A stretch of DNA of 64,000 bases from Azolla caroliniana (lineage: Eukaryota; Plantae; Polypodiophyta), in assembly GCA_043228905.1 (NCBI GenBank), contig JBHGNT010000001.1:868001-932000 (forward strand), given 5' to 3'. Position numbers and translations under genes: made by a program. Within the stretch, counting starts at the first letter, position 1. The number at the start of each line of letters is the position of its first letter. The notes beneath the pieces were generated by a model. It saw nothing but the letters and a program-made list of their open reading frames with translations. It ran no database searches and had not been told where the DNA came from. Shown one piece after another: positions 22,896-49,714 of this stretch.

Positions 22896-23260
22896 TCGGT
22901 TTGGTTTGGTTTCAAGACCAAGAAACCGAACCGGGCCCATTGCTAGTCTCCATAAGAGGAGAAAAGTTGGTTTCACACATGATTCACAAGTACCCACTTC
23001 GATCTTTTGGCAATTTAGTTCTACAACCATACCACAAATGGAATAAGTGTTTTGTTTTTATCAAAATTGAATTTAAGTCATGAATGTTTGATATTGAGGT
23101 GAACAAGTTTGCCATTAACTTTACATTTGAATATGTGATTTACATATACTTTATATTTGAATGCTTGTATATCAATATAAAAAATGTTGATACAAATAAC
23201 AACCATATATGTATGCCTTACTTGATGGGGTAAAAACAAAAAACAGCACCATAGAGTGCA

Positions 23261-23980: not shown

Positions 23981-24697
23981 ACCTCAGGGAAGGCCGAGCC
24001 ACCCAAGGACAACGAGGCTCCTTGGCACCCTGTTAAGAAGCAGGGGAAACTTCGAAGCCTAGGTGCAGCCTCTCCCCCCCTCTTTCTAGACTGTCCCGTA
24101 GAAAGTTCTCCTACCTTGTCACCAGCAAGTGTGGACGAACAACCCTTGAAATGGGTGAAGATCCTCTCGGGGAGTGTGGAGGCGCACAACCTACAGGTGA
24201 GAACGTCCAACAGATTCACATTGCTCCAAGGGCTAGGGGATGGCGACCCAGAAGCGTTGGCAGCAACAATGTCCCCCTGCGAATCGTTGTCCCCCAAACT
24301 CGTGTTCTCCACCCCGATGGAGATGCAACCACAATAGGTATCGTCCACCCCATAGGAGATGTTGTCAAAGGCCCCCCTCAAGATGGAACGTGAATGTGGT
24401 GGTGACCTCAGATTAGTGAAGTTGTGGATCCGAACTGGCACGATCAAGAGAAAAATAGGCAGCCTATCACCTGGTTTGACGACGTGTCTTTGGGCTAGAG
24501 GGGTGCAGGATATGCAACCGCTGAGGAACCAAACTGTATCGCGGGAACTATTTGAAGTGGGTCGGGCACGACATGTTGGGGAATCCCTTAGGGGCTCTCC
24601 AATCTACTATGGAGTCCCTACCCCCAGAAGTAGATGATAGTTTGCCCCCTGACATGGGGGTCGGCCCCGACATGGGCGTCAACCTCACCGGCTTCAG

Positions 24698-27518
24698 ATG
24701 AGGATCCTAACGTGGAATGTGCAGGGCCTTGGTGGAGGCCGTCAACAACATGAGTGCAAAAGACTTCGGGAGGAGTTGAATCCCCTTAATATAGGGGGCA
24801 ACATTGACATATTGCTTTTGCAGGAACACCACCTCTCTCAAGAGAGAACTCAATGCCTAGTAAACCCCTTGTCGGGTGGATGGACCACATGGTGGTCGGC
24901 TACACAGGGTGACCTCCACCAAAGAGGACGGGTCTGCATCTCGATTAGCGATCAAGCCTGTTACGAAGTAACATCACATGGCATGCTAGTGGCGGGTAGA
25001 GCCTTATATGTGCTGATGAAGTGGAATCGCCTTCAGATTGGGGTGCTAAACATTTATGCCACTAACTCTTCCCCCAAGAGAGCAATCTTTTGGAGGATGT
25101 TAGCGACAACATTGCTTGATGCAGAGGCGTGGGTAATGGCCGGAGATTTCAACATGACTGAGCATCTGGGAGATAGGAAAGGGGGGACCCAAAGACCGCT
25201 TCATGGTGTGGAGTTGGACTCATGGGCTTTCCTAATTGGGAAAATTGGCGTGAAGGATACATGGGGCTCTTCCCTTAGGAGATGCTCGCATTCGCTACAC
25301 ATCTCTCGAGCTGTCGTGAATGCTTGGGGTGGTAGTCTTGCACGACTAGACCGCATATACATCAGCTCGTCCCTCGAAGAGCTGGGGGGCTCCTTCACTA
25401 TCTTGGCAAGTCTTACCTTCTCGGATCACCAGCCGATGAGACTAGACCTTAACCCACCCCGCGGAAGCAAGGGGAGTCTCATTGTGAAAATCCCCATAAA
25501 GATCATGAAGAGTGCAAAGGGGAAAGTAGGGTTGCAGAGCATATGGTGGGAGACCATTGTAAGTGGATCGGCCAGTGAGGATTTGCAGAAGAAACTGACC
25601 CTCTCCTCCATTTTACAACAGGAAACCAAGTTGGCCCTCCAGCAGGCTAGAGCCATTGAAACAAAATTACAGAAGTCCATTGCGGCTGCGCAATGATTGC
25701 TACAAGCAGACCCTAGCTGCAATTGGTCTAGAGCTAAGCTGGAGGAAGCAAAGTTGAAGCTACGGGAAAGGACGTTCGAGAAGAACCGCATGTTATTTCG
25801 AAGGGCCCCATCATGGTGGGCTAGAACAGATGGCAAGGTTAACCGTCATTTCTTTCACTCCATGGCACCCAAGGGTGGTGGTGGACATATACAGGGTTGT
25901 GCAGAGACCAGACGGCTCAATAACAGAGGACAAGGATGAGATTCTGCATAAGGCTACACAATACTATCGCGACCTGCTCACACCTATGCATATGCAGCAA
26001 AACACGGAGCTGGTTGAGAGAGTGATGGCTTGCATTCACCCCAAGGTCACCCATGAGATGGAAGTTGTGCTCGATAGCCCCATTTCTCGATTAGAACTCT
26101 CGGAGGCACTTAGGGATTTGCGGAGAGGAGCATGCCCCGGCCCTGATGGTCTCTCACGAGATTTTTTTGAGATTCATTGGGAAACTGTTATACCGTCAAT
26201 GGAAGCCGAGATTCCAGAGATTTGGTCCTCAAGAGCGATGCCAACTAGCCTGGTGGAGGGGATGATCTATCTCATCCCTAACGCGGCAGGGCAAAGCCTC
26301 GAGCTGCGCCAATGGCGTCCAATCATGATCCTTAACACGATATACAAGATACTCGCAAAAGTCCTAGCTAGGCGGATAACAAGCTTCCTACCGGACATCA
26401 TACATGAGAATCAAACAGGGTTTATCATGGGTAGGTGTATCTTTGATAATGTGCTGCTTCTCTGGGAAGTTATGGCATTGGTAGATCGCATCGCATCGAG
26501 CTCGGCTATTCTGATGTTAGACTTTGATTAGGCCTACGACAGGGTGTTATGGCCCTTTTTGGAAAGAGTGATGAGAGCTATGGGCCTTCCCCCGCAATGG
26601 AGGAATTGCACTTCTGCACTCTATTGGACTACTACTAGTAGCGTGTTGGTATCTGGTGCTAGGGGCCCCGCCTTCCAACTACATCGCTCAGTGAGGCAAG
26701 GTTGTCCCCTAGCCCCATATCTTTATCTATTTGTAACTGAGGCTTTCTCGGCCTACTTACAAGCACCAAGCAACGGACTGAGGGGATTGCCCTTACCCAA
26801 TGTGACTGAGGATCTTCTGTTATTTGAATATGTCGACGATACGGTCCTTTTCTTGCAGAGCGATGATGCAAATTTGCAGCGAGCTGAACATCTTGTTGAA
26901 GACTTTTGTCCGGCTGCTGGTGCCAAGATCAATTGGGATAAAACCCAAGGCCTCTGGTTCAGCGAACAAGAGATGCCAAGGTGGCATCCCCATGTTGATT
27001 TTGCATGGGTCCTTGATGGGACGAGATTCAAGTACCTCAGATTTACGATGGGGAGGGCAATCACCAAGGGAACACACTTATCCCATGTGCAAGCCAAACT
27101 AAGCAAGAAGTTGAACCAATGGAGCAGGTCTAAACTATCCTTCGCTGGTAGGGTTCTTATTGCGAACCAAGTGATGCTCGCCACCATGTGGCACTCAGTC
27201 TCGTGCTGGATTATGGACCCTTCACGCTTGCACGTGATTAAGGTTACCATCAGGGGTTTTATATGGTCAGGTAAGGACAACCCGATGGCTGCTGCTAGAG
27301 TATCATGGCATTGGTTAACTCAACAGCGGGCCAAAGGGGGGTTAGCCTCATAGACCCCTTAATGCAGAGGCGAGCATTGCTAGCCAAAATGGTGGTTCGT
27401 TGCCTCCTGCCAGGTAAGGGGTGTTGGAAGGTTCTACTTCGCAATAGGTTGCAGGCAGGGACTCAAGAGTATGGTAGGCCTTGGCCCAACTCCTTGAATT
27501 GGTGTTGCACGAGCGGAG
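24698..27518 (+). pseudogene. LINE ORF2 5' part (AP endonuclease + reverse transcriptase), with stops and frameshifts
   Basis: MRILTWNVQGL, LLQEHH, AGDFN, RLDRIY, SDHQP, PGPDG, WRPI, QTGF, LDFD*AYDRV, RQGCPLAP, YVDDT. Confidence 0.93.
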
Positions 27519-27950
27519 TGTTACCGATTAGGAACACGGTCTGCGGTCAGTCCTTCGACCTAGACCTCCAAGTGATTGTGAAACAACGAATGGTGGCGTA
27601 TGTGCATAATACGTAGGGGAATGTTCCCCGCAACCTAGCAGCATATAAGGGAGACGGCTTCAACCGACTCCTTATCAATGGTTACACGCTCACGTTCTTA
27701 CACTCTCAGGTATTCCAGACACACAATAGATTAGCCATAGCTATACATAGATTTTTAGAGAAGATAGAATTCTATTACGATACACTTCCAAAATTACACA
27801 CTACCTCTATTAGAGGTTTTCTGCCCTTTATATACGCAGGGTCTTTTTAGCCATTCACGCTTCCTGCGTGAACCGTTACATGCGTTATGATCTTATATTA
27901 TTTCTTATTCCTACGCTCTTGTCCGTCGGTTACTATTCCGGCGGACAACA
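27519..27950 (-). repeat. Element B 3' LTR (432 bp)
   Basis: Matches 49269-49709 apart from scattered substitutions and a 9-bp indel; TATATAAA on the minus strand. Confidence 0.95.
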
Positions 27951-28022
27951 CCTGGCATGCCTGTGGGACGTCGGACCCATCCCGTTAATCTAATTCCAAA
28001 ATGGCGCGGATGTTTGGCTCTG

Positions 28023-31930: not shown

Positions 31931-33225
31931 CGGGCTACGCGCCGGGAAGAGGAAGCGCGGCTTCCCGGAGGGCATGCAAGGCCAAGCGGACCCAGAGGGC
32001 GCAAGTCGAGGCGAAGCGGTAACGAGAGCCTCGAGGGACACCGACACAGAGGTCGGGATGGCAGTACGCTCTACCGCGAGAGAGCACGGCGAACAAGGGG
32101 AAAGCGAAAAGCGCGTGATGGGGTCATTGAAGGACTGAAGCACGAGCACGCACTCGGAGGAGAGCATCGACATACGGGGAAAGCCTACGGAAGGCAAGCG
32201 CGGAGCGGAGAAAGTCGGCACGTCGAGGTGCGTGGCACGCAAAGGGCGAAATCCGGCAGTGACCGGGAGTGCATCCGGAGGATATACGGGGCGGACAAAG
32301 GAAGAGCAACCGGGTCGGCGACGACGTTTGGGAAGACCGAATAGGGAGGAAAGCACGGGCATCGGATACGGCGGGTCGGATGTAGTCAGTGGTTCAAGGA
32401 CCCACGGTGCACGTGGCAGATCGGGTGGAGGCAACGACTCGGCGAACATCGTCGAGTGTGGCGGATCGGATGGCGCCGACGGTTCGAGACCATTCGGCGA
32501 GGATTGTGGACTGGAAGGCGGCGGTGGTTCGTGTGGACGGGGTGGTCTTGCTCGAACTGGAAGACAAAACGGGGCGGGCCCACAAGGATGCTAAGGACTC
32601 GGCCGGTCGTCGTGGCCGAAAATATCGTGTTCTCTCCCCTATGTTTTGGCACATACCGGTGGATGTGCGGTTTGGTGGGGGCGGATGTCGTGAAGATTTT
32701 CGTCCATAGGCGGAAACCGGGGTGGAAGGGGCAAGTCGGTGGTGTGCAACATGTGCACATGTATACTAGGATATGGTGTATAGAAAGAGAGGGGGAAATT
32801 TTGTCCCACATTGTAAGGTCCCTCCCTCCTTGGGCTATAAAAGGAAGGGAGGGGTCACTTATGAGGGGGTTGCCTATTTTGAGGGAGAGAGGCATACCAC
32901 TTAGGTCGAGGATTTCCTATTTGGTTTTAGGGTTTCGGTTAGGGTTTTCTTCTTGGGTTTTCCTTTAGGGTTTTCATATAGTCGTTTGGTGCAGCCATGG
33001 CGGCCACCATTGTAAAGCGTTTATGTTTTCTTAATAGAACTTCTTGTTGAGTATCTTGACTCCATCTTCTTCATCTTCTTCTATCATAATGTTATATTCG
33101 TTCTCTTCTCCTCTTGAGCTATGAGCTAACCTTCCATTCGTTGTCTTAACCTTTCTCCTCTTCTCCCTAGTCCAAGACCCCCGTGGTCCCGCCCCTTCCA
33201 CACGCACGCGCGTAACAACGCGACA

Positions 33226-34519: not shown

Positions 34520-35758
34520 TCACTCCGGGCCACGCCTCCTAATGGCCACCGCCGTAGTCAACGGTCTCGGTGTCGAGAGGTCTTGCCTCCGTCCGCTATG
34601 ACCTTGTTCATCGTCGTTTCGATCGTCCGCTTTGCCGCCGCCACCTTCCGTCTCTCTGGTCTCACGTGGGCTCTCGGGGCCGACCGCCGAAGTCTCTAGA
34701 ATAGGTGTGGGAAAAGTCTCGGTACCGTTACTCGCCGATGCCATGTTCGTAGCCACCTTCGTTCGAACGCCGTGGTCCGTGGCTATCTCGTCTCCAATCG
34801 CGGAAGCCTCGATTACGCCTGCCGCCTCCTCTTCCTCGATCTCCTTGCCGTCGTCTTGGTTGCCCACCTTGCCGCCGCCACCGTCCGTCACTCTAGGTCT
34901 CACACCGGCTCTCGGGCCGGATGCCAGAGTCTCTAGGACCGGTGGGTGTAAGCTCGCGGCACCGCCGCTTGTCCGCTCCTCACTCAATGTTTCGGGCCGC
35001 CATGTCCCGAATCCGTAGTTACCGGCGTCCATGGTCGTCCCTTCACCGCAAGGCAAGAGGGTCGCTTCCTCCGCACCCTCTCCTATGTCGCTGTCGTACG
35101 CTCTCCCGGCCTCCGTATAGGCCCCATCTTCTACGTCTAGGGAGGCTTCTTCCTCCGCATCCTCCGATCGCCTCCAGCCCGTCTCCATAACAAGCCCTTC
35201 TTCGGCTCCGATTTTCACCTTCACAAGCTCGCATGCCTCCCGTATTAGCACCTCTAGGTCGAGCTCCTCCGAACCGTTTTGCGTTGAGCTCTCTTCCGGC
35301 GGTAGTGCGTACTCACTCACCGCTCTCTCTTCTCCGCCGCTCGCGGGCCGTGTTGTGGCCGACCGCCTCGCATCATGTTGCCGGCACACCCACCGATCGA
35401 ACTCATGTCGACCTCTTCCTTCCGGTTCCGTGTACCCGTACGCCTCCAATAGGGCTCCCTTAAAGGACACCCACGACTTATGAGCTTCTCGTAGCTCCTT
35501 GACCTCCTTGTGCACCGATACGGCCGCCACTCGAGGAAAATACTCTAGCCACATCGCCTCATCTACGCCCCCTTTCGCCATCTCGGCATCGTACGCTTCC
35601 AAGAACCTCGGGACATCGTCCCCGTTGAATCGGCCGACTCGATCAACCACCCTCTCGATGGCTTGTTGAGCCGCATCTCGCCTCGCCTTTTTCCGTCGCG
35701 CATCCATCAGGATCTTTGCCATCATCTCCTCGAAGTCGAAGTCTTCTTCAATCTCCAT
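34520..35758 (-). CDS. Element D Gag-like ORF (412 aa) with acidic low-complexity tail
   Basis: VGRFNGDDVPRFLEAYDAEM..SWVSFKGALLEAY aligns by eye with C gag IGMFDGTNISKYVNIYYDEM..DWNAFKEALVSEY. Confidence 0.75.
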   Translation of the reverse strand: MEIEEDFDFEEMMAKILMDARRKKARRDAAQQAIERVVDRVGRFNGDDVPRFLEAYDAEMAKGGVDEAMWLEYFPRVAAVSVHKEVKELREAHKSWVSFKGALLEAYGYTEPEGRGRHEFDRWVCRQHDARRSATTRPASGGEERAVSEYALPPEESSTQNGSEELDLEVLIREACELVKVKIGAEEGLVMETGWRRSEDAEEEASLDVEDGAYTEAGRAYDSDIGEGAEEATLLPCGEGTTMDAGNYGFGTWRPETLSEERTSGGAASLHPPVLETLASGPRAGVRPRVTDGGGGKVGNQDDGKEIEEEEAAGVIEASAIGDEIATDHGVRTKVATNMASASNGTETFPTPILETSAVGPESPRETRETEGGGGKADDRNDDEQGHSGRRQDLSTPRPLTTAVAIRRRGPE

Positions 35759-36335
35759 GCTCCCTTGCCGCCCTTCACGTCGGGTTCACCAAAGATGTCG
35801 CGTTGTTACGCGCATGCATGTGGAAGGGGCGGGACCACGGGGGTCTTGGACTAGGGAGAAGAGGAGAAAGGTTAAGACAACGAATGGAAGGTTAGCTCAT
35901 AGCTCAAGAGGAGAAGAGAACGAATATGACATTATGATAGAAGAAGATGAAGAAGATGGAGTCAAGATACTCAACAAGAAGTTCTATTAAGAAAACATAA
36001 ACGCTTTACAATGGTGGCCGCCATGGCCGCAACAAACGACTATATGAAAACCCTAAAGGAAAACCCAAGAAGAAAACCCTAACCGAAACCCTAAAACCAA
36101 ATAGGAAATCCTCGACCTAAGTGGTATGCCTCTCTCCCTCAAAATAGGCAACCCCCTCATAAGTGACCCCTCCCTTCCTTTTATAGCCCAAGGAGGGAGG
36201 GATCTTACAATGTGGGACAAAATTTCCCCCTCTCTTTCTATACACCATATCCTAGTATACATGTGCACATGTTGCACACCACCGACTTGCCCCTTCCACC
36301 CCGGTTTCCGCCTATGGACGAAAATCTTCACGATA

Positions 36336-38181
36336 CCGTACCTCCTCCGACTTGGCTTCTGATAGTCGGTTCCGTACCTGAATCCGCAAACTGGGTATCT
36401 GAAACTCTACCGGTATCACGGCCTCCAGCCCAAACGCTAGTCGAAACGGTGTTGACTGTATGCTTGTTTTGTAGCTGGGTCTGTACGCCCATAACGCACT
36501 CTGTAATTTGGTATCCTAGTCTGTTCTATTTTCATTGACGATTTTCTTCAAGATGGTCTGCAACGTCTTGTTGGTGGATTCCGCTAACCCATTCGCTTGT
36601 GGATAATATGGCGTACTCTTCTTGTGGACTACGACGTAATGATGTGTTAGTTCTCGAACCACCGTATTGAGAAAGTGGCTCCCCTGGTCACTGATGAGCT
36701 CAATCGGACAGCCGAACCGGCACCATATATGCTCGTAAAGGAATCTCCCTGTGACGGCCTCTGTATTTTCTCGTAGTGCCTTTGCTTCTACCCACTTGGT
36801 GCAATAATCTGTGGCTACCAATATGTATTTATTGCCCGTACGGGTTGCCACCGGTGTGAAGGGGCCCACAAAATCCAACCCCCACTTTTGTAAGGGGTCT
36901 AACGGTAATACGGGCTGGTGTGGCATCCTTGCGCCCTCCGTGGGCTGGCCTATCCGTTGACACAAATCACACTTTCTACAATACTCGGATGCATCCTTCT
37001 GCATTGTCAACCACCATAGGCCCACCTACCATATTTTCCGGGCTGTAACATCGCTCGCGTAATGGCCGCCTGCCGTGCCGCAGTGCGCCTCATGTAAAAC
37101 TGCTTCTTTCTCATCTTGACGTACCCCACATCGCCAAATGTCGTCACTTCCTTTGTGATATAAAATTCCTTCTACGAGGCAGAAGTTACGGCTCCGGACG
37201 GCTAATCGTTTCTTCTCGTCCGTGCGTAATTGTGGTGGAGGAAGTCCCGTAGTCAAAAAATATGTCATTTCCATAAGCCACCGGTCCGGAAAGGTTGATT
37301 CCGTTCTTTCTGCCAATGCTGCTACCCGCAGGATGTCGGCGTCCGGAAAATCATCGTCGTCCTTCTGTACTGTTTCTCCATTATCGAGTCTGCTCAAAAA
37401 ATCTGCCACTACATGTTGTGTCCCCGGTCGGTGCTGAATTACAAAATCGAATTCTTGAAGCAGCAGCATCCATCGCGCCAATTTCCCCGTCAGGGCTTGT
37501 TTCTCCACCAAATACAGCAGCGTCGAATGATCCACGTGGAACGTGAATTTCCTCCCCAATAAATAATGCCAGAATTTATTGATGCTATAGATCATCCCTA
37601 GCGCCTCCCGTTCCGTTGTGGAATAGTTACGCTCCGCTGTTGATAATTTGCGACTACTGGCCGGTACCAATTCGGTTCGGTGAGCTACATTAGCGCACTT
37701 CCTATTGCTATGTCTGAGGCGTCTACGAACACGTGGAATGGCTTCGTCCAAACTGGAGGTTGTACGACCGGTGCCTGTGTGAGCATTATCTTGAGCGCCT
37801 CATAGGCCTTGTCCTCCGTTGCAGTCCATTGGAAGGGAGTCCAATGCACGACGGCATGTAACGGCGTGGCGAAGTTCGCCGAGTATCGTATCATCCGACT
37901 ATGCCATCGTATTTGTCCTAAAACCGGCTCAATGATTTCGCGTTTGTCGGAGTTTTGGCTTACGTAATCGTGGAGATCTTGTTCGGATTGATCGTTATTC
38001 CCTCCTTGCTAACTATATGGCCTAGGAGAGTCCCGTTGGTCACGCCGGAGGCACATTTCGTGGTATACAAGCTTAAGCGTGCGGTGCGGCAACGATCTAG
38101 GCACAGTTGCAGATGCATAAAATGGTCGATTGTTCTCCCATATACCGCAAAGTCGTCTAAAAAAACTTCCATGAACGCCGG
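36336..38181 (-). pseudogene. Element B RT 3' part, RNase H and integrase core, disrupted
   Basis: FMEVFLDDF; VFVDASD; ERNYSTTEREAL; HHCC region; KWGLDFVGP; ISDQGSHF; PQANGLAE; ALWAYR..TPFRL. Confidence 0.9.
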
Positions 38182-39283
38182 TGTCGTGAAGTACGAAAGC
38201 TTCACATTAAAAGTCTACAATAAGATAAATACGTAACTAAAATAACATTTGATAATGTTTTATATAATATTAACAACACATATGATAATATTATATATAT
38301 GTAAAAAAAAATATATATATATATATAGATAAATATATTATATTACACGAACAAGAGAGGACTTGAACCAATAACCCCACCCTATGACTCTCAAACCTTA
38401 CCATTTACTCTATACTAGTAATATACATAAAATAAAGCATACTTTATATATACTTTATATTACATAAAGGATTTGCTTCATGATATAAAAATAAAGTTGT
38501 ATGTTGTATTCAATAGCATTTTGAGACTCGAACCCACAACCTCATACACCAAAGTTGACACACCTACCATTAGGATAGGCCCTTTCTCTTTAAGATTATG
38601 TTTTCATGTTTATTCTTATTGCATATATTGTTTCATACATAAAAGCTCAAATGAGCGAGATGTTTATCATGCATCACATGTAATGCATGAACGCCAAATG
38701 GCGATCATGCATCACATGCATTTCATGCACTACATGCATGATTTGTACCCTCCAATGCATCATATGCATGGGGGCACCTATTTAAATGGTGAAAGAGAAG
38801 ATCAAAGGGGAGATATGTATGAGATATCAATCAAATTATGTACTTCATAAGAGATACCATAAAAATAGAGAAAGAAGGGAAGAAGTTTAACATAAACGTG
38901 GAGCTCTAGCTTGGCGGTCGTGGTGGTCAACTCTCAACAAGAGGGAGGCGGTTCGAGCCTTATCTTCATCAAAATATTGAAGTGAAGATTGTAGTGGTCT
39001 ACGATCAAGAAAGAGAAGAGCGATTACCTTGCATCACAAAGTTCGGAGGTTCAACGACGTGCACAATCATTTTGTAACTCTTTCATCAAATAATTATAAA
39101 TCTCTTTTATTGCTTCAAATATCATTCTATATCCTATCTTGTCATATCTTGTTGATCACTATTTATCTATCTCTACTCTTTCGTCTCTTCCGTCCATAAT
39201 CCCAGTGATTCCTTCCTCACTTTCACGATATCTTTTGTCTACGCAACGCTACGCTTCTAGGCGAGCCACGCCACGACACAATT

Positions 39284-39301
39284 TGGTGAACCCGACGTGA
39301 A
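39284..39301 (+). other. Element C primer-binding site, tRNA-Trp (TGGTGAACCCGACGTGAA)
   Basis: Complement of the plant tRNA-Trp 3' end TTCACGTCGGGTTCACCA; the identical PBS occurs in D. Confidence 0.88.
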
Positions 39302-39345
39302 ACGGGGAAGTAGAAGAGACATCTAAAGTAAAGATCAACATCAAC

Positions 39346-41520
39346 ATGGCAAGTATGAGTACAATGGATCCGGTAATGTTGTTTATTGAAAAGTTGAATC
39401 AAGATCGATTATTTCATGCCTTACGAGAAGTCCGAGAGAAGATTGGTATGTTTGATGGCACAAATATTTCGAAGTATGTGAATATATATTATGATGAAAT
39501 GGAAATGTTTGGTATAAATGATGTCAATATGATAGCAAACTTTTATAAATTAGTGGACATGGAATTAAGAGATAGAATTCATGAAATACAAGCATTGCAT
39601 AGTTTGGATTGGAATGCATTCAAAGAAGCACTTGTGTCTGAATATGCTCGTGAGGATTTCTCTCGAGTTACTATGCGTTCATTTCATGAATGGATCTTAA
39701 AAGAAGATAAAGGGTTATCTGTGGCTGACACAAAAAAAGAGTTTGATAGGATGTATGGACACTTAAAGCCAGAAGAAAGAAATTCTTTGTCTTGGCAAAA
39801 GGTTGCTTTATTTTTGCAGGCAGTTGACAAGAGATATAGAAAAGAATTGGAATTTATGCTTGAAGTGCCAAATACCGAGGATGGTATAACGACAGATTGG
39901 AATGAGGTAACAAATGCTTGTAATAAATTTATGAAAAGAATGCAAAGGAATGGTGTAATGCTACAAATACCACATGTGGGAAACACAAATCGGCTTGAGC
40001 AAAACATTGAAGTTCAAAGACTTGGTCGAGAACCATCACACGAAATGGTCCATCAACCACGAGAAATGACGGGAACTAAGAGTGAGTTTTTGCTTGATGA
40101 TTTAGTTCAAAGTATGAAAGATCTAACAATTAAAGTGGCAAAGCTTGAGAATGGTCAGACTTCGAGGTCAAGGGAACCATTTCGACCTCGATGCATGTGG
40201 TGTGATAGTCTCGAACATCGTCTACGTGATTGTGAAGAATATAAAGACATGGAGAATCGGGACTTGGTCTATTGGAAAAATGGTAACATTTACTTAACTG
40301 AAACTAGATCTCCGCTTACAAAGAACTTTGGTGATGGTGGTGTTAAGGTTAAATTTGAAGAAGCTGAAGCAAAGAAGGCTTCCGCAATGTATTACTCGGC
40401 AACGGCAGGAATGCGCCTCGATGACATGCCATCCCGATCATCATTCTGGGAGAAGGTTGTAAGTACCGCACAAAAGCAAAAGATGAAGATGGAAGACCTT
40501 CGTGTTGCCGGAGATTCTGTAAGGAAAAACACTGGATGGGATGTTCCAGTAGATGCTATGACGGTCTATGCTCAGATGGCAGAACACCAAGAGCATGAGG
40601 TGATAGTGGAAGAAAAAAGGAAAAGATCGGATGATGAGATTGGCTCAACCAAAAAGCATGAAACAAGAGAAAGCAAAAGAAAAGAGATGGACGCAAAAGT
40701 TGAAAAAGGTAAATCTGGTCCTTCATTCAAATTAATGTCTGATATTGAAAAGGATACAGATTTAAAGAAAGTTTTAGAAACAAGAATACTAGACAGCCGA
40801 GTAGAATTTACACTAAGAGAAGTATTAGGTATTGCAAAAAAGGAATTTCATGATGAAATAATTGATATTGTGCGAAGAAAGAAGCAAGTAAATGAGCAGG
40901 TTAAAGAGACAAATCCGAAGGTGGCATATGAAGTGGTGAGCAACGAGTCAAACAATATTGTTGTTGACTCTCAACATGCATCAACCTCAATGATAAATTC
41001 AACAGATGTAAGAAGCCATTACTCTCTCAAATGTTGGGCAAGAGCCACTACTGAGCATCATGTGAAGATTGGAAATGTTCCAGACCCCGTGATGGCACTT
41101 ATTGATCATGGTTCTGAAATAAATATAATGAGTGCTGATTTTTACAGGAAAGGTAGATGGCCAATTGATACTCAACATGGTTGGCGAGTAAAAGCTGCCA
41201 CATCAGTCACGGAAGATTTATTTGGTGCATGCCCAAATGTAAAGGTTACTATTGGTGATATAGAGGTAGATCAACATTTCTTTGTGCAGGAAGGATCTAC
41301 CTATCCAATAATCCTAGGGCAACCATACATTACAGCGGTATGAATGGAGACCAAAGTCCTCGACAATGGTTCTGCCTATGCGAAAATCCGTAGCCAAGAT
41401 GGACGACGAACTGTACAATTTATGACAGTTCGCCCAAATCATGAGAGGAACAAGCAAGAGCTTCGTGATCATTTAATACCAAAAGACTGTGATGATTTTG
41501 ATAATCAGGTTTTTGACTAG
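39346..41520 (+). CDS. Element C Gag-protease; in-frame TGA at 41341-41343, natural stop likely TAG 41518-41520
   Basis: CMWCDSLEHRLRDC knuckle; LIDHGSEIN protease motif; IILGQPY. The frame stays open for 58 codons after the TGA (METKVLDNGS..). Confidence 0.88.
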
Positions 41521-44500
41521 GACTGTTGCGAGTGAGGGTTGCAATAGTCCCATTATTAAAAGACCCTCATATAGGGCATTACAACATATGAATAAGTCAT
41601 TTCATGTTTCTGAAAGTGGTGCTATATGTGTGACTAGGATGTATGAATGCAAGAGGAACTTGAAAAAGAATGCTAATCTGTTTCAGCAGGCATTGAAGGA
41701 TAATGGAGTACTTGAAATGGAAGAGCAGATTGAAAGCGTTATGGAAGAAATTTCTTTTGCAAATACTTTAGAAGAGTTAGAAATGTATTTGAAAGAAGAT
41801 GATGAGAATGTTAGAAAGATACATGTAAACTCAATTGATATGTATTATGAGATTGATAGGTATAATTGTAAATATGAAGAAGTAGAAAGTTTATGTAATA
41901 CAAAATACAAAACAATAGATAAAAAGGTCAAACCTGCTGCAGTACCATTACCTATTGGTAGTGAAGAGAAGATGGAGGCAGCAGCAACTGAGCCTATGCT
42001 TCGACCAATAGAGAAGATTGGACATCACTTCACTTCGGAGACAATAAATAACTTGAGAATCGGAAGGGGTGAATTTCTTCTGCAATCAGAGATCGCGACT
42101 TTCAAAGAAATGATCTTTAGGCATGGGAAAGCGTTCGCATTCAAAGCTGAGGAGATTGGTTGTGTAAATCCAAAGGTGGTGACGCCAATGGTAATATTTA
42201 CTATCCCTCATATTCCTTGGAATTTTAAACCTATTGCAGTACCGAGAGCTCGATTACCTCAACTGTTGGAGCTGCTGAAGGATAAAGTCAAGATGAAGAT
42301 TTTAGAGCCTTCAAATGCACCATACTCCAATAGATGGTTCACAGTTCCAAAGAAAGATGGTTCTCTAAGATTCATCCAAGATCTACAACCAGTCAACAAG
42401 GTCACAATCCGAAATGCGGGAATCGGACCGATCGTTGATGAATTTGCGGAAGCGTTTGCTGGAAGAGCGATTTACTCTATGGGAGACCTATATTCAGGAT
42501 ACGACCAATTTCAACTAGCAATTGATAGTCGCAATATCACAACAATGAAAACACCAATTGGGTTGGTTCAAATGTGCACTCTACCTCAAGGTGCGACAAA
42601 TTCAGTTGCTCATATGATGAATGCAATGAACAAGGTTCTACATGAGTACATCCCAAAGGTAACTATGCCATTTTTAGATGATATTCCTATTAAGGGATGC
42701 TTAGAAAGAGAGAAAGATGAGACTATGGTTGGAAATGGTTGCAGAAAGTTTGTGATGGATCACATTAATGACTGTGAAAGTATTTTAAATAAGCTTGAGC
42801 AGGTACATTTGACACTATCAGGAACAAAGTCTTGCTTTGGGCAAAACGAAGTTCTAATAGTTGGTCATATGTGTGGGTGGTATGGGAGGAAGCCTTCACC
42901 GATCAAAATTAATGCAATACAAAATATGAAGGAAGTTTGCGACTCGGTAACAGAGGTGAGAAGATTTTTGGGTGCATGTGTGTTTTATCATATTTGGTTA
43001 CCACACTTTGCACATGTCTCAGATCCTCTCTACCAACTTTTAAGAAAAGGAAAGAAGTTTATTTGGACTGATGAACATACACAAGTTGTTCAACAGCTGA
43101 AAGAAGCATTACTGAAAGCACCAGTTCTTCGCCAACCAGACTACAAAGGTGAAAGACCAATTATAGTAACAGTTGATACTAGCCCAATCGGGATCGGTTG
43201 GGTTATCAACCAAGAAGATGAAGACCAACATCGATATGCTATTAGATTTGGAGCAAAGATATTAAATGAAAGACAAAGAAACTATGCACAAGTTAAACGA
43301 GAATTGTGGGGTTTGCTTACTGCATTAAAAACAGATAGAGATTACTTGATCGGAGCAGATGTAGTGGTTGAAACAGATTGTTTGCCACTCATTGGAATGA
43401 TAGCAAGTTGCACGACACCAGATATTGCAATGCTTCGGTGGATTGCATACATCAGAACCATGAACCCAGAATTGCGGCATATAAAGGGAAAAGACAACCC
43501 AGTTGCAGATATGCTGTCAAGGGCAAGGTTCATAAATGAAAAGGTGATGCAAACTGAATATAAGAACTGGGCAACTACAAGCCATCAATTTGCTCATCAA
43601 GAATCTATTACGCCTCATGATGAGTTTAATGTAAGTATAATGTTCAAAGACACAGAGTATGAAGGTCAATGGTTCGAAATAGGAAATTTTCTAAAGACTC
43701 AAGAAGCCAACCCATCATGGTCGAAGAAACAATTAAATGAATTTCGAAGACGAGCATTCAAGTTTTTTTTACATGAAGGGCATTTATGGAGGCGTCCAAA
43801 AAGGCCAACCGAAAATCCTCTTCGAGTCATTTGTAAGGATGACATTAAGAGAAAATTAATTAATGAATTCCATGATAGTTTGTGGGCAGGACATAGAGGC
43901 ATATGGGCGACATTTATGAAGTTGAAAGAAAAGTATTGGTGGCCACATATGTATAAAGATGTAACGAAATTTGTGGAAACCTGTGAGGTTTGCCAGAGGT
44001 ATTCAACTATCCGGTATCGAGATGAGCTAAAACCAACATATTCATCATCAATGCATTATAAATGGATGGTCGATCTAGTGACAATGCCACTTGGGGAAGG
44101 TCAAATGCGATATTTAGTACTAGCAAGAGAAGACCTTACAAACCAAGTAGAAGGAAGACCACTACGACAAAAAACAACTAGAGCTGTATGTAAATTTTTG
44201 TTAGAAGATGTAATATGTCGTTATGGGTGTGTTGGTAAAATAATTGCAGATAGAGGAGAACTCGACTCTGATGAAGCTAGAGAATTCTTCAGCCGAATAG
44301 GGGTCAAATTATCACTTACAACTGCATATAATCCAGAAGCCAATGGAAAGATTGAAAGAGGACATAGCCCAATAGTTAAGGCGATCGTGAAAAGCTGTAA
44401 AGGTAAAATAAGAGATTGGCCACGCATGCTACCTTATGCACTATGGGCGGATCGAACAACTCATAGTTCAGTAACAGGGTACATGCCAGCTGAATTGATA

Positions 44501-44971
44501 CTTGGCCAAAAGCCCATCATGCCGATAGAAGAATCAATTATGTCATGGATATCTATTCCATGGAGAGAAGAGGTGAGCAGAGAAGAATTGCTTGCTTTAC
44601 GAATTCAACAATTAGAGCGTCGACCTGAAGATATAGAAATAGCAGCCCAACGATTGAAGGAGGCTCGACTAAAGAATAAAATCCGTTTTGATAAAAGTCA
44701 TAGAATTCGACCTAAGAAAATAGAAGAAGGAGATTGGGTGCTCGTGTATGATAGCAGTTTAGATAATCAACATAGCACCGTCCGCAAGTTCGCTGAAAGA
44801 TGGTTTGGGCCTTATATAGTAAGAAAAGTATATGATAACTTTACTTATAAGCTTAGTGAATTGGATGGGACACTAATCCTAAACGTGGTAGCTGGAAAGA
44901 GGATAAAAGTATTTAAGAAAAGGTTTGAGCTTGAACCTCCTCCAATAGATCAACATGAAGATGAAAGATAG
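41489..44971 (+). CDS. Element C Pol (RT-RNase H-integrase), open for 1160 codons; presumably reached by frameshift
   Basis: DLYSGYDQ, LPQGATNS, FLDDI, VDTSP, NPVADMLSR, HHCC (H..GH..C..C), IIADRGE, PEANGKIER, WFGPY. Confidence 0.96.
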   Translation: MMILIIRFLTRTVASEGCNSPIIKRPSYRALQHMNKSFHVSESGAICVTRMYECKRNLKKNANLFQQALKDNGVLEMEEQIESVMEEISFANTLEELEMYLKEDDENVRKIHVNSIDMYYEIDRYNCKYEEVESLCNTKYKTIDKKVKPAAVPLPIGSEEKMEAAATEPMLRPIEKIGHHFTSETINNLRIGRGEFLLQSEIATFKEMIFRHGKAFAFKAEEIGCVNPKVVTPMVIFTIPHIPWNFKPIAVPRARLPQLLELLKDKVKMKILEPSNAPYSNRWFTVPKKDGSLRFIQDLQPVNKVTIRNAGIGPIVDEFAEAFAGRAIYSMGDLYSGYDQFQLAIDSRNITTMKTPIGLVQMCTLPQGATNSVAHMMNAMNKVLHEYIPKVTMPFLDDIPIKGCLEREKDETMVGNGCRKFVMDHINDCESILNKLEQVHLTLSGTKSCFGQNEVLIVGHMCGWYGRKPSPIKINAIQNMKEVCDSVTEVRRFLGACVFYHIWLPHFAHVSDPLYQLLRKGKKFIWTDEHTQVVQQLKEALLKAPVLRQPDYKGERPIIVTVDTSPIGIGWVINQEDEDQHRYAIRFGAKILNERQRNYAQVKRELWGLLTALKTDRDYLIGADVVVETDCLPLIGMIASCTTPDIAMLRWIAYIRTMNPELRHIKGKDNPVADMLSRARFINEKVMQTEYKNWATTSHQFAHQESITPHDEFNVSIMFKDTEYEGQWFEIGNFLKTQEANPSWSKKQLNEFRRRAFKFFLHEGHLWRRPKRPTENPLRVICKDDIKRKLINEFHDSLWAGHRGIWATFMKLKEKYWWPHMYKDVTKFVETCEVCQRYSTIRYRDELKPTYSSSMHYKWMVDLVTMPLGEGQMRYLVLAREDLTNQVEGRPLRQKTTRAVCKFLLEDVICRYGCVGKIIADRGELDSDEAREFFSRIGVKLSLTTAYNPEANGKIERGHSPIVKAIVKSCKGKIRDWPRMLPYALWADRTTHSSVTGYMPAELILGQKPIMPIEESIMSWISIPWREEVSREELLALRIQQLERRPEDIEIAAQRLKEARLKNKIRFDKSHRIRPKKIEEGDWVLVYDSSLDNQHSTVRKFAERWFGPYIVRKVYDNFTYKLSELDGTLILNVVAGKRIKVFKKRFELEPPPIDQHEDER

Positions 44972-44999
44972 TGGCACATGCCGGAGGATGTGCAGGTCT

Positions 45000-45011
45000 A
45001 GAGGGGGTGGA
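45000..45011 (+). other. Element C polypurine tract AGAGGGGGTGGA
   Basis: Lies immediately 5' of the 3' LTR. Confidence 0.85.
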
Positions 45012-46113
45012 TGTCGTGAAGTACGAAAGCTTCACATTAAAAGTCTACAATAAGATAAATACGTAACTAAAATAACATTTGATAATGTTTTATATAATAT
45101 TAACAACACATATGATAATATTATATATATGTAAAAAAAAAATATATATATATATATAGATAAATATATTATATTACACGAACAAGAGAGGACTTGAACC
45201 AATAACCCCACCCTATGACTCTCAAACCTTACCATTTACTCTATACTAGTAATATACATAAAATAAAGCATACTTTATATATACTTTATATTACATAAAG
45301 GATTTGCTTCATGATATAAAAATAAAGTTGTATGTTGTATTCAATAGCATTTTGAGACTCGAACCCACAACCTCATACACCAAAGTTGACACACCTACCA
45401 TTAGGATAGGCCCTTTCTCTTTAAGATTATGTTTTCATGTTTATTCTTATTGCATATATTGTTTCATACATAAAAGCTCAAATGAGCGAGATGTTTATCA
45501 TGCATCACATGTAATGCATGAACGCCAAATGGCGATCATGCATCACATGCATTTCATGCACTACATGCATGATTTGTACCCTCCAATGCATCATATGCAT
45601 GGGGGCACCTATTTAAATGGTGAAAGAGAAGATCAAAGGGGAGATATGTATGAGATATCAATCAAATTATGTACTTCATAAGAGATACCATAAAAATAGA
45701 GAAAGAAGGGAAGAAGTTTAACATAAACGTGGAGCTCTAGCTTGGCGGTCGTGGTGGTCAACTCTCAACAAGAGGGAGGCGGTTCGAGCCTTATCTTCAT
45801 CAAAATATTGAAGTGAAGATTGTAGTGGTCTACGATCAAGAAAGAGAAGAGCGATTACCTTGCATCACAAAGTTCGGAGGTTCAACGACGTGCACAATCA
45901 TTTTGTAACTCTTTCATCAAATAATTATAAATCTCTTTTATTGCTTCAAATATCATTCTATATCCTATCTTGTCATATCTTGTTGATCACTATTTATCTA
46001 TCTCTACTCTTTCGTCTCTTCCGTCCATAATCCCAGTGATTCCTTCCTCACTTTCACGATATCTTTTGTCTACGCAACGCTACGCTTCTAGGCGAGCCAC
46101 GCCACGACACCGG

Positions 46114-49014
46114 AATATATTCCCCAAAGATCTCTGTAATTGTTCGTTGAAATGTTGTTGGCGTCGTCTTTTGCCCGAACATCATGACGACTGCCACATA
46201 GACTCCCCAGTCCGTGACAAATGTCGTCTTCTCTTGGTCGTCGGGATGCATGCGTACCTGGTTATACCCACTGAAGCCATCTAAAAAACTGTACATCTCA
46301 TGTCCTGCGACGACGTCTAGTACACTATCTGTGAATGGTAACGGGAATGCGTCCATAATGGTTACGACGTTTAATTTTCGGTAATCCACGCATACCCGTA
46401 TTTTGTCATTTTTCTTTGGAACGACTACTATCGGACTTAACCATGTGGCTTGTTTAACTGGTCGTATGAATCCTGTTTTTAGGAGTTTGTGAATTTCTTC
46501 TTTCACGCGAGTCGCGTAGTTCGGGTTCATGCGGTAGCGGCGCTGCTGGACGGGTTTTGCGTCGGTTGCTAAATTGATCTTATGTTGGTAGAACTTGGGA
46601 TCTAACCCCTTCATGTCTTTGTGAGCCCAAGCGAACACATCTTTATACTTCTTGAGTAGTGCGATCATCGTGTTTCTCTGGTCCGGCCTTAATTCCTTTG
46701 CGATGGAGAGGAAACGGGGTTCTGACTCTGTACCCACGTTTACTTCTTCCAGGGCGGAGGCGGTGACTTGTCGTGAAATTTCCATTTCCCTTTCGAATGC
46801 CACTTGTGCTCTGCTAAGTTCCAATATGGACTCCAGGTTTGGTTCGTAAGCCTCGTCGTGGAGAATAGTGGTCGTGGCATATTCTGTCGCGGTTGCGATG
46901 ACGTCGATTTCGAACAGCGGAATGATCTGAGGGTGCTCATCTAGGTATGCCTCTAATTCTGCATCCTCCACCCCAGCCAACATATTTATATCTTCTACTT
47001 ATAATGGTGTGATACCCTTGGGTTGTGGCGTGCTTCCTTCCGTAGGTACGCGAACCTTAGTGCGTCCATGTCGGAAACTGATACACTTGTGTTGCCAACT
47101 CTGCTTGATATTTGCTGCCCGAAGCCACGGTCTGCCCAGAAGCACTGGCTACGCCCCTAGGGCGGCCAAGGTGAGGACGAATGCCGAGATGTCGAAGCAG
47201 TGTCCGCCCACGATAATGCCTATCTTGCGAATTAGCCCCAATGGTCGTACTGAGTGGGTATTTGCCATTCGGAGCTAGAATGGGCAAGCCTCCCAATCTA
47301 AAATGCCTAACTGCTTGCAAGTATTCACGCTAATTACATTAACGCTTGAGCCGCCATCGCTTACGCATCCAAGAATTTCCTATCCGTGTTATATCAATGT
47401 AATAGTCGGGTTGTGGTGATCCACTACAGGCGGTCCGTCGCTAACGTCTGTCAGGTTTGTAGTGACGCTCACCCCGGGTATGCCCGTCACCCATTCTTCC
47501 ATGGTTTGGCGGAAGCGTGGGACTAGCTGCAACAGCTTCTCCATGGTTAACGTTATCTAGTAGCCTGCTAATGCCTGCCAAATGGGGTCCGGGATCGGTC
47601 CTTCGTCCTCCGCTCGCTCCATCATATTCGCAAACTCCTTCCGCATGTGCTCTGTATTGGTCGCGTTTGCTTTTTCCACCCATGCATGGGCTTGTCATCG
47701 TATCTCATATTGCGCGGCCCAATCAGCCATTTTTGTTTGTCGGCGTGTCATGACTTTCTGCACTTCCGTCATAATCATATTGACGACGGGCCCCTTGCCC
47801 TTGCGTGTTGGGCATTGCGTGCCATAATGTCCAGGTTGCTGACAAACAAAATAATGGATGCTTGATTCGCCCTTCTCGGTTCCTGGTGGTGTTTGTCGAT
47901 CCCCTGGTGCGACTTGCTCCTCACGGTCCGGCCTCGTTTGTCGGAACGCACGCGGTGGTTGTTGTTGGTCCCAACGTGGTTCTTGGTGTCGCTCATCTCC
48001 CGAGCTTTCATCATATCACCGGTGGTCTCGATATTGTCGCAGCTTCCCACGATAACCATTGAAGCTGCCATGCTTGTTTGTCGGCCAGTGATTCTCATAG
48101 CGTCGGCCCCCTTTAGCATAACTCGGAGGTCCACGGTAATCCTCATCCTCTGGTTCTTCTTCCTCGAAATCGTTATGATTCCGGCGATTCCAGTGGTGTC
48201 GGTCGTCACGTGGGTTGCGATCCACATACCGTGGTCGGTCTTCTTGCCTCCTTTGTTTAGTACGGCATGGGGGACGTTGTGTGTCCATGCTGCGTACTGT
48301 GGGAGCGGCTCTATTCAACATATTGTATTCCAATTGGTCGACTGTGTGAGCCTTCGAGTGGCAGATTGGGGAGTGGATTCGCATGTTGCAATCCACTGCG
48401 GAATGCCCCGAGTTCAAGCAAATCGTGCACTGGATTGCTTGACGAAACTATCGTTCCTCGTCCTAGGGTAACGCTTGTCGTAAGGAGGACATAGAAAACC
48501 TTTCCTCCTCCTCGTCCAACTCGAGCTGTAACGCTTGTTCAATGACCATATTTGTTGTTTCCCCTTTCACGCTATTGTTGTTGAGCGTTGTCCGTATGGG
48601 TCGGCGTAATGCTGCTACAAATGTCTCTCGAGCCTCATCCTCCGCGGGGCTCCATTCTAGTTTCCGCCGTAAATTTTGGAAACGTAAGCTGAAGTCTGCG
48701 ATCGTCTCGGTCGGCAGTTGCTTAATCGTGTAGAACTGTCCGAGGATTTCGCGTTGTGGAACCCTCCGATGGAAGAACCGCAAGAAAGCGGACTGCAGCT
48801 GATCGAAGGTCGTGATTGTTGGCAAATCCATCTGTGAATGCCAAAATGTCGCTCGCCCATCCAATGTTAACCCGAACTCCGCCATTTTCGACTGGTGCGC
48901 TACCACCACCGAAAGGCTCTGTGCCATGTGGTTCGCATTCCAGACATTGAGGAACATGCGAATATGGGTTGCGGCGTTGATTTCGTCGTTAAAGCGGGGA
49001 TAGGCAGAGGCCAT
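46114..49014 (-). pseudogene. Element B gag-protease-RT (5' part), disrupted
   Basis: Retrotrans_gag-like ORF 48463-49014; degenerate knuckle FVCQQPGHYGTQCP ~47815-47855; DGGSSVNVI ~47335-47360; RT ORF to 46983 cut by element C. Confidence 0.88.
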
Positions 49015-49264: not shown

Positions 49265-49268
49265 AAAG

Positions 49269-49709
49269 TGTTACCAATTAGGAACACGGTCTGCGGCCAG
49301 TCCTTCGACCTAGACCTCCAAGTGATTGTGAAACAACGAATGGTGGCGTCTGTGCATAATACGTAGGGGAATGTTCCCCGTAACCTAGCAACATATAAGG
49401 GAGACGGCTACAACCGACTCCTTATCAGTGGTTACACGCTCACGTTCTTACACTCTCAGGTATTCCAGACACACAATAGATTAGTCGTCGCTATACACAG
49501 ATTTTTAGAGAAGATAGAATTCTATTACGATACGCTTCTTTACATTCCAAAATTACACGCTACCTCTATCAGAGGTTTTCTGCCCTTTATATACGCAGGG
49601 TCTTTTTAGTCGTGCACGCTTCCTGCGTGACCTGTTACATGCATTATGATCTTATATTATTTCTTATTCCTACGCTCTTGTCCGTCGGTTACTATTCCGG
49701 CGGACAACA
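49269..49709 (-). repeat. Element B 5' LTR (441 bp)
   Basis: Direct repeat of 27519-27950; followed on the minus strand by the PBS and gag. Confidence 0.95.
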
Positions 49710-49714
49710 CGGAG

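Follow-up and report, generated by a model that had tools for sequence, protein, structure and literature searches.

Candidate pseudoknot-stimulated -2 frameshifting in two sister families of Ty3/gypsy retrotransposons, likely derived from a -1 signal by loss of one base

The retrotransposon and its gag-pol junction

The window (the whole 64,000-nt stretch of Azolla caroliniana DNA that was analyzed) contains a young 7.9-kb Phygy-like Ty3/gypsy retrotransposon, whose gag-protease (gag-PR) and pol frames differ. Its features are given below; L001 and L002 are two related loci, the latter representing a sister family.

38178-38181: 5' target-site duplication CCGG, directly before the 5' LTR
38182..39278, + strand: 5' LTR (TG...CA), differing from the 3' LTR by a single A within a run of As
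39284..39299, + strand: primer-binding site, putatively of the tRNA-Trp type; its 16-mer (0-1 mismatch) occurs in 42 of 80 related loci
39301..41520, + strand: gag-protease frame (start mod 3 = 1), interrupted at 41341-41343
41477..44971, + strand: pol ORF from stop to stop (mod 3 = 2), in the +1/-2 frame relative to gag-PR
41507..41514, + strand: predicted slippery site AG_GUU_UUU, the same in L001 and L002
41515..41519, + strand: 5-nt spacer GACTA, preceding stem 1
41520..41570, + strand: H-type pseudoknot, with stem 1 (S1) at 41520-29/41541-50, loop 1 (GA) at 41530-31 and stem 2 (S2) at 41532-40/41562-70
41551-61, + strand: A-rich pseudoknot loop CATTATTAAAA
45000..45011, + strand: polypurine tract, immediately 5' of the 3' LTR
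45012..46109, + strand: 3' LTR
46110-46113: 3' target-site duplication CCGG, directly after the 3' LTR

The TG...CA LTRs, target-site duplication, primer-binding site, polypurine tract and domain order PR-RT-RH-IN are those of Ty3/gypsy elements. Phygy elements are described as having a 4-bp target-site duplication NCGN, a size of 7656-9968 bp and a primer-binding site mostly of the tRNA-Trp type (Neumann et al. 2019, PMC6317226). The window element resembles them in that CCGG at both ends fits NCGN, its 7928 bp fall within this range without an extra domain or extra ORF, the coding region fills the internal part and pol has no chromodomain match in Pfam; this is a comparison by description, and that paper gives the polyprotein organization of Phygy as not determined. 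Named homologues came from Physcomitrium, Riccia and Adiantum. Pol (1164 codons from stop to stop, 1153 counted from the slip site) comprises a linker, RT, RNase H and integrase, and the gag-PR frame includes the protease motif D-H-G-S-E and a DUF4100 match slightly below the Pfam cut-off. Undamaged gag-PR proteins of the window family are 724 aa long with the C-terminus NQVFD. The window copy itself is dead: a premature stop at 41341-43, missed by the original prediction, interrupts its protease frame upstream of the slip site. Most of the contig depth (~66-100% by run, four runs) has a sense codon at this position, so the signal is a trait of the family which this copy could not use. Self-BLAST detected no second copy of the junction within the window, and Rfam returned two chance miRNA matches (E 0.52), both in the LTRs.

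The junction reads as originally proposed. The gag-PR frame ends CAG GTT TTT GAC TAG (41506-41520), and the 5-nt spacer, S1, 2-nt loop, S2 and 11-nt A-rich loop all lie at the positions first assigned to them; the last base of the gag stop TAG (41518-20) is also the first base of S1. Gag starts at mod 3 = 1 and pol at mod 3 = 2, which is the claimed +1/-2 offset. A slip of -1 runs straight into TGA, whereas one of -2 or +1 enters pol. The claim of a frameshift-type pseudoknot was borne out by a score of 44, reached by 0 of 300 dinucleotide shuffles (mean 4.3, maximum 28). RNAfold, which cannot form knots, recovered the S1 hairpin (z = -2.6, with equally good structures in 4 of 200 shuffles), and an Rfam search gave no match for the pseudoknot. 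The slippery heptamer, a spacer within 5-9 nt and the 3' pseudoknot of a -1 programmed frameshift (PRF) signal are present, but a downstream ORF in the -1 frame is absent from the window, L001 and L002, where this frame stops immediately (window and L001) or after 5 codons (L002). Stop-codon readthrough was ruled out: a further stop follows 4 codons later in frame 0, which has 16-22 stops in the linker.

A frame offset fixed in two sister families

Purifying selection acts on pol, beginning close to the junction. Between the window and L002 (dS ~0.9-1.2), dN/dS was 0.18 for codons 29-124, which belong to the linker, and 0.08 for RT and everything after it; the linker had no stops in the +1 frame versus 16-22 and 8-10 in the other frames, and a 24-nt indel within it was in-frame. 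In L002 the two frames overlap by 26 nt, so that any single shift must adjoin the slip site. CAG GTT TTT plus spacer was identical at 13 of 14 nt between the families (P ~0.001 at 50% background, 0.008 at 60%), and dS of the pseudoknot codons was 0.32 versus ~1 elsewhere, on small counts.

Both families are fixed for the frame offset. The junction was surveyed in Logan contigs, which drop rare variants, from 8 runs with 6 labelled organisms; one of these runs may be the window's own source, and X20 is probably DNA. At least 9 contigs, in 7 of 8 runs, spanned the T run with no gaps (depths include 114, 624, 705 and 2431), and no inserted base was found there among the matches listed for all 8 runs. 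The original prediction had named T6 or another extra base that puts pol in -1, in most copies or reads, as the finding that would overturn it; no such majority appeared among the contigs, and the offset was upheld. L002 (dS ~1.2) does have a T6 run, yet its junction length and +1/-2 offset are unchanged. The alternative raised at the outset, that one T was lost from a T6 run in this copy or its assembly, was therefore rejected at the level of contigs. The slippery site was common to L001 and L002 and missing from the other 78 loci (18-mer, up to 2 mismatches). Besides, 6 of the 15 listed members of the window-family protein cluster reach the C-terminus and all 6 end in QVFD, QVFY ends 2 of 4 proteins in the sister cluster, and the pol proteins P0153 and P0154, from other contigs, begin in the same frame across the slip site. 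The known +1/-2 families number two, the sister family being represented by one low-coverage contig (L002) plus two proteins from other contigs; both positives of a pol-linker protein search (2 of 88 candidates) came from these families, and no relatives were found among viral contigs. Two minor DNA contigs skip the junction, by 32 nt in X18 and 67 nt in X13, with ends that are not GT-AG; we read them as decayed or diverged copies.

Relatives with pol in the -1 frame

Pol lay in frame -1 at 55 of 59 scorable junctions and in the +1/-2 frame at three (window, L001 and L002); one was broken. The 55 relatives carry G_GAU_UUY-type or G_GGU_UUU sites, a 6-nt spacer and an H-type knot with a long S1, and -1 frameshifting is predicted for them; we found no description in the literature of such a predicted -1 signal running through a whole clade of plant gypsy elements. 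In trees, both midpoint-rooted, the +1/-2 elements formed a single clade nested among -1 types. L035 has pol in -1 behind G_GUU_UUC, which means that GUU by itself is no marker of -2. L070 scored as +1, but it carries the ancestral site and its pol frame is interrupted 202 nt further downstream, so we class it as a decayed -1 type.

The pseudoknot is common to the -1 relatives and covaries across them. A strict perfect-stem finder detected nothing at many -1 junctions, owing to single mismatches or bulges, and these were scored by the junction and stem comparisons instead. Over 34 junctions, both-sided changes occurred at 8 of 10 S1 pairs, the S1 covariation score was reached by 0 of 500 shuffles, and slid registers scored far lower; S2 (26 junctions) was above shuffled, swapped and downstream controls (0 of 500). 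A fixed-register S2 count, in which the window rows were one column off (57.7% paired), is indicative only. The stem covariation proposed as a check was thus found across relatives, where S1 and S2 covary or pair, but not within the -2 clade, where changes fall on one side of a stem and two terminal pairs of S2 are broken. The argument from a short spacer is weaker than claimed: the 5 nt are present, but at 17 of 39 distinct -1 junctions one more pair could be added to stem 1, which would likewise leave a 5-nt spacer.

Proposed -2 frameshifting, its alternatives and known systems

We propose that the two sister families probably make Gag-PR-Pol by a pseudoknot-stimulated -2 frameshift, likely born by one-base loss from an ancestral -1 signal. 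Most ribosomes would stop at the gag UAG and yield Gag-PR, while a minority would pause 5 nt before stem 1 with GUU and UUU in the P and A sites, and tRNA-Phe would re-pair on UUU two bases back, giving ...N-Q-V-F-L-T-R-T.... Slips of -1 would terminate at once in the window family or after 5 codons in L002, producing a harmless, near-normal Gag-PR. The lost base, ancestral to both families, is best assigned to the A of G_GAU_UUU: its deletion would convert an ancestor such as CAG GAU UUU UAG AUA GGG into CAG GUU UUU NNN UAG GG in one step, yielding the GUU codon, the 5-nt spacer and a stop one codon later. Two independent coordinated changes (A to U plus a shorter spacer) were dropped as an origin because one deletion explains both. 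Loss of this A probably gave rise to AG_GUU_UUU, the -2 site of PRRSV, from the ancestral -1 signal. In a stem-anchored alignment, the -2 slip would put tRNA-Phe on the UUU of the ancestral -1 slip, at equal distance from stem 1.

The site, knot and offset of the predicted -2 frameshift stand as observed; from them we infer frameshifting itself and its direction (-2 rather than +1). Re-pairing of tRNA-Phe at -2 is perfect in all three +1/-2 elements, and it is not possible on the ancestral G_GAU_UUU. In the P site, by contrast, a -2 slip allows no re-pairing (GUU to AGG), which counts against -2. In engineered work on U6A, pseudoknots drive -2 at 5-8-nt spacers, and oligonucleotide-driven -2 was effectively abolished by replacement of the first base with A, C or G (PMC3458567).

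A pseudoknot-assisted +1 shift, in which the P-site tRNA-Phe moves forward on UUU_K with GAC or UAC in the A site, or in which the shift occurs at UAG as in antizyme, would reach the same net frame and appears unlikely. GAC and UAC are not known as slow codons, a point against it. In L002 (U6) tRNA-Phe re-pairs perfectly on UUU at +1, but the high-copy window family, whose contig depth is very high and whose LTRs are nearly identical, has only UUG there; its base change after the U run abolishes the +1 match and keeps -2. A +1 shift at the stop gives no re-pairing (GAC to ACU, UAC to ACU). Antizyme +1 frameshifting does use a stop with a 3' pseudoknot nearby, and the +1 or -2 output of an antizyme cassette varies with host and spacing (PMC5009743, PMC3498833); besides, the split-frame plant elements as of 2003 were all +1 (PMC5009743, summarizing Gao et al. 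2003). On U6A, however, an apparent +1 product was shown by mass spectrometry to be -2 (PMC3458567).

It is very unlikely that pol starts separately, by termination-reinitiation or from a subgenomic RNA, at a pol-frame AUG just 5' of the gag stop, with the pseudoknot kept for another role. An open pol-frame ATG does occur 3-6 codons upstream of the site in all three +1/-2 elements, but these ATGs differ in position between the two families and derive from Asp/Asn codons, and a +1-frame ATG of like kind occurs by chance in 12 of 39 -1 junctions. The calicivirus reinitiation-type signal UGGGA is absent from the 100 nt before the gag stop. Reinitiation would leave the conserved U run and spacer unexplained, and free Pol would require another route into particles.

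Regulated splicing, with CAG/GUUUUU as 5' splice site and an intron that takes out the gag stop, also seems improbable. The donor-like CAG/GT is common to all three +1/-2 elements and frame-restoring AG acceptors lie downstream, but the donor is a poor match to the usual consensus after GT, and the nearest acceptor (88 nt, AAG) is absent from L002. Acceptors common to both families lie 133-180 nt off and would remove 44-60 pol codons that are stop-free with dN/dS of 0.1-0.26; splicing also gives no reason for keeping both stems. Ogre elements do join GAG-PROT to RT by splicing (PMC6317226); the non-coding, stop-containing PR-RT intron expected of them is not seen here, the linker being open in the pol frame with the dN/dS of 0.18 given above, although a short intron would still be compatible with this.

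It is highly improbable that the +1/-2 copies have a dead pol and depend on rare in-frame or -1 helpers to copy them in trans, or that transcriptional or RT slippage along the T run rescues them. Rare helper variants would be dropped from contigs, the window copy is itself dead and RT slippage on U runs has been described (PMC5737442); against this, pol has been under purifying selection over dS ~1.2 in two families, each of them with the offset, master copies would hand their own junction to progeny, and the T run is merely T5-T6. An assembly error or one-off mutation in the window copy is hardly credible, since junctions of both families, across the 8 runs and the 6 organisms named for them, have the same length, even if the one-base LTR difference in an A run makes homopolymer errors possible in the assembly and this copy has a premature stop.

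On balance we lean towards a natural RNA-pseudoknot-driven -2 frameshift, which would be the first for a retrotransposon and for any plant nuclear element, born by one-base loss from a -1 signal, with the ribosome pulled back into an unchanged register with respect to the knot. Natural -2 frameshifting is catalogued for phage Mu, arteriviruses and Trichomonas vaginalis virus 1 (TVV1) (PMC5009743) and has been proposed for ASXL2 (PMC5644247). In the literature we found no description of it in retrotransposons, and pseudoknot-driven -2 only in engineered or heterologous settings, the arterivirus case being protein-driven. The elements would show that recoding can absorb a frameshift mutation. 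The -1 and +1/-2 elements represent matched natural cassettes, with the same pseudoknot, -1 or -2 output and essentially one base between them, so the determinants of slip direction and size are directly testable.

The 55 relatives match the layout of canonical -1 PRF (X_XXY_YYZ plus pseudoknot, as in PEG10 and PNMA3; PMC5009743), whereas the two derived families have pol outside the -1 frame. The parallel with arterivirus RG_GUU_UUU drawn in the original prediction holds for the window, L001 and L002, which match in both site and long +1/-2 ORF. The PRRSV -2/-1 site is AG_GUU_UUU (PMC7618472) and its -1 slip meets an immediate stop (PMC6675879); this site and stop, A-site re-pairing at -2 and poor P-site re-pairing are the likenesses to arterivirus nsp2TF (PRRSV, SHFV; PMC7618472, PMC6675879, PMC5644247). 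The arterivirus shift is stimulated by nsp1beta and PCBP on the C-rich motif CCCANCUCC ~10 nt downstream and uses no RNA structure; PRRSV depends on this protein complex, a point against -2 here, and the motif is absent from all three +1/-2 elements, which instead have a cis pseudoknot 5 nt downstream, and their predicted product is the essential Pol. The CP/RdRp -2 frameshift of TVV1 is similar in its capsid-polymerase fusion, short overlap, U-rich C_CUU_UUU site and close relatives (TVV2-4) in -1, but TVV1 is a protist dsRNA totivirus whose -2 shift was shown by mass spectrometry, and the available part of the report names no pseudoknot stimulator (PMC3622925). On the engineered HIV U6A site with a stem-loop or pseudoknot, pseudoknot-driven -2 is likewise favoured by a spacer 1-2 nt shorter than that for -1, and this system is the basis of the mRNA-tension model (PMC3458567). 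That system is artificial and has partial P-site re-pairing, whereas the window families would be natural, selected and on G_GUU_UUU; if true, their pull-back to the same register would provide an evolutionary test of that model.

The gag-pol junction and the reality of its frame offset

The gag-protease frame ends CAG GTT TTT GAC TAG at 41506-41520, and re-checking of the sequence confirmed all the coordinates, stems and frames of the original prediction, which placed a slippery site and an H-type pseudoknot at 41506-41570. In a perfect-stem search the pseudoknot reached a score of 44, whereas the best of 300 dinucleotide shuffles scored 28. The junction lies within a Ty3/gypsy LTR retrotransposon:

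38182-46109: whole element, 7928 bp, holding the junction; LTRs, CCGG target duplication, PBS and PPT present
41477-44971: pol ORF in the +1/-2 frame (same net frame) relative to gag-protease; RT, RNase H and integrase by Pfam

The two LTRs differ by a single base within an A run. Moss, liverwort and fern genomes were the sources of the named homologues. In size, NCGN duplication and absence of extra domains, the element agrees with Phygy as tabulated by Neumann et al. (2019, PMC6317226), a likeness that rests on these traits; the ORF organisation of Phygy is given there as not determined. Despite its near-identical LTRs, the window copy is interrupted by a premature stop in its protease frame (41341-43). 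Because this stop precedes the slip site, the copy itself is unable to frameshift. Most contig depth of other runs (4 runs) had a sense codon at this position.

Surrounding features were as follows:

36516-38008 and 46054-46998, minus strand: older broken gypsy element, whose pol gene was the insertion target of the 7928-bp element; RT on one flank, RNase H and integrase on the other
32688-33225 and 35796-36333: inverted repeat, 538 bp, 98.9% identical; candidate readings are a fold-back element or a pair of oppositely oriented LTR pieces
34523-35785, minus strand: gag-like ORF, 421 codons, enclosed by this inverted repeat
27517-27951 and 49267-49710: direct repeat, ~440 bp, 93.5% identical; the nest may lie within an outer element whose LTRs these are
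23255-27350: broken ORFs of LINE-like look, with endonuclease-like and RT-like motifs judged by eye
19010-19414: tandem repeat, three copies of a ~135-bp unit, 90-93% alike

The main alternative raised originally was loss of one T from a T6 run by mutation or assembly error. The stretch was present in 20 of 22 listed runs (10 studies). Eight runs, one of which may be the window's own source, were examined as Logan contigs rather than raw reads; organisms A and B were covered by four studies and organisms C-F by two, with one study common to both sets. No insertion at the T run was listed in the contigs of these eight runs. Nine listed contigs bridged it without a gap in 7 of 8 runs (run X6 had no bridging piece among the contigs listed). 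They include contigs at depths of 114, 624, 705 and 2431, as well as diverged contigs that differ elsewhere by 17 and 28 letters. Among minor contigs, one had the whole site deleted and one skipped it. Also, QVFD was the C-terminus of all six end-reaching members among 15 listed of 35 in the window family's protein cluster, and QVFY that of 2 of 4 sister-cluster members. On these grounds sequence error was rejected and is extremely improbable. In the sister family L002 the run counts six Ts, yet the junction length is unchanged.

Ancestry and selection

We compared the window with 80 metagenome loci, the best of the 175 that were confirmed. Junctions were scorable in 59 of these 81 sequences (12 had no usable gag-protease end and 10 no RT in reach). 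In 55 (39 distinct), an open pol in the -1 frame followed a heptamer (G_GAU_UUU, 48; G_GAU_UUC, 4; G_GGU_UUU, 2; G_GUU_UUC, 1) lying 6 nt 5' of a homologous stem 1. Three (the window, L001 of the same family, and L002) were of the +1/-2 type, with AG_GUU_UUU and 5-nt spacing, and one, L070, was a -1 type in decay. A separate family is represented by L002, whose PR and RT are 84% identical to those of the window, with dS about 1.2. A clade-wide -1 signal in plant gypsy elements (L003-L071) is predicted from the 39 distinct junctions: G_GAU_UUY, 6-nt spacer and covarying H-type pseudoknot. The decayed relative L035 (1257-1330; G_GUU_UUC, 6-nt spacer, pol in -1) serves as a naturally occurring control for the families of the -2 type.

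The three +1/-2 elements formed a single clade (support 100/100) in a midpoint-rooted tree built on PR-RT-RNase H from 30 rows, after 10 duplicate junctions and 19 short or stop-ridden rows (29 in all) had been set aside. Among 135 gag-protease protein ends, 84 had F directly after the site, as -1 loci do, 2 were VFD/VFY, 31 were other, mostly five residues later, and 18 had no end motif. In a midpoint-rooted gag-protease tree, built from 115 proteins with 21 others excluded and carrying long-branch warnings and labels that are proxies for frame, the +1/-2 elements were nested in two sets, each with support (SH-aLRT 96 and 95) and made up mostly of F-stop proteins. The ancestral state was very likely -1.

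Between the window and L002, dN/dS was 0.18 in linker codons 29-124 and 0.08 from RT onward, and the linker had zero stops and one in-frame 24-nt indel in the pol frame; therefore, pol is made and translation passes through the linker. Slip site and spacer had 13 of 14 nt in common, the upstream gag tail was far more diverged, and dS in the pseudoknot was 0.32 (few sites). Stem covariation, proposed originally as a check, was found in stem 1: 8 of its 10 pairs had changes on both sides (34 junctions), with a covariation score reached by 0 of 500 shuffles, a test inflated by relatedness, and slid registers far below. Stem 2 exceeded three controls (26 junctions). Within the -2 clade, stem changes were one-sided; all stem 1 pairs were kept and two stem 2 end pairs broken. 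The frame switch is real, family-wide and under selection.

Candidate mechanisms

Sequence comparison suggests that pseudoknot-driven -2 frameshifting at AG_GUU_UUU is the probable mechanism. The nearest -1 families, aligned on stem 1, read CAG GAU UUU UAG AUA GGG. Deletion of the A of GAU would give CAG GUU UUU NNN UAG GG, which is how both derived families are arranged, and in a -2 slip tRNA-Phe would re-pair on the UUU used in the ancestral -1 slip, at an identical distance to the knot. At the ancestral site, re-pairing at -2 is impossible. Pseudoknots with 5-8-nt spacers are described as driving -2 on U6A, the best spacers being 1-2 nt shorter than those that suit -1 (PMC3458567). Several observations count against -2: P-site re-pairing is nil at AG_GUU_UUU; oligonucleotide-driven -2 was abolished by a non-U first base in that study's experiments (PMC3458567); L035 combines G_GUU_UUC with pol in -1; and stem 1 can be extended to a 5-nt spacer in 17 of 39 -1 junctions.

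A +1 frameshift, which yields the same pol frame, is unlikely: L002 permits perfect +1 re-pairing, which also counts against -2, but in the window family a +1 slip finds only UUG. Reinitiation from an AUG close by is distinctly improbable, as a comparable AUG occurs by chance in 12 of 39 -1 junctions. Splicing from CAG|GT is just as improbable, with no close acceptor common to the +1/-2 elements. Helper copies or slippage are more doubtful still.

Comparison with known -2 systems

A 2016 review names phage Mu, arteriviruses and TVV1 as cases of -2 frameshifting; by its account of a 2003 survey, split frames were found in only two types of plant element, each of them +1 and unresolved (PMC5009743). 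PRRSV is the -2 example in the relevant part of a 2022 review (PMC8915115), and frameshifting appears in general terms only in the sections concerned of a 2025 plant review (PMC12786077). A literature search, with most subscription papers outside its scope, found no report of a -2 frameshift in a retrotransposon and no description of the -1 signal of the L003-L071 clade. The case for pseudoknot-driven -2 in these elements, built on predicted signals, is strong. PRRSV depends on a protein complex, and the +1/-2 elements lack the motif for it, which counts against -2; the PRRSV -2/-1 site, AG_GUU_UUU, is identical to theirs in the site description of PMC7618472, and a -1 slip likewise meets an immediate stop, as described in PMC6675879. 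The closest evolutionary parallel is TVV1, a -2 lineage amid -1 relatives in the comparison given in PMC3622925.
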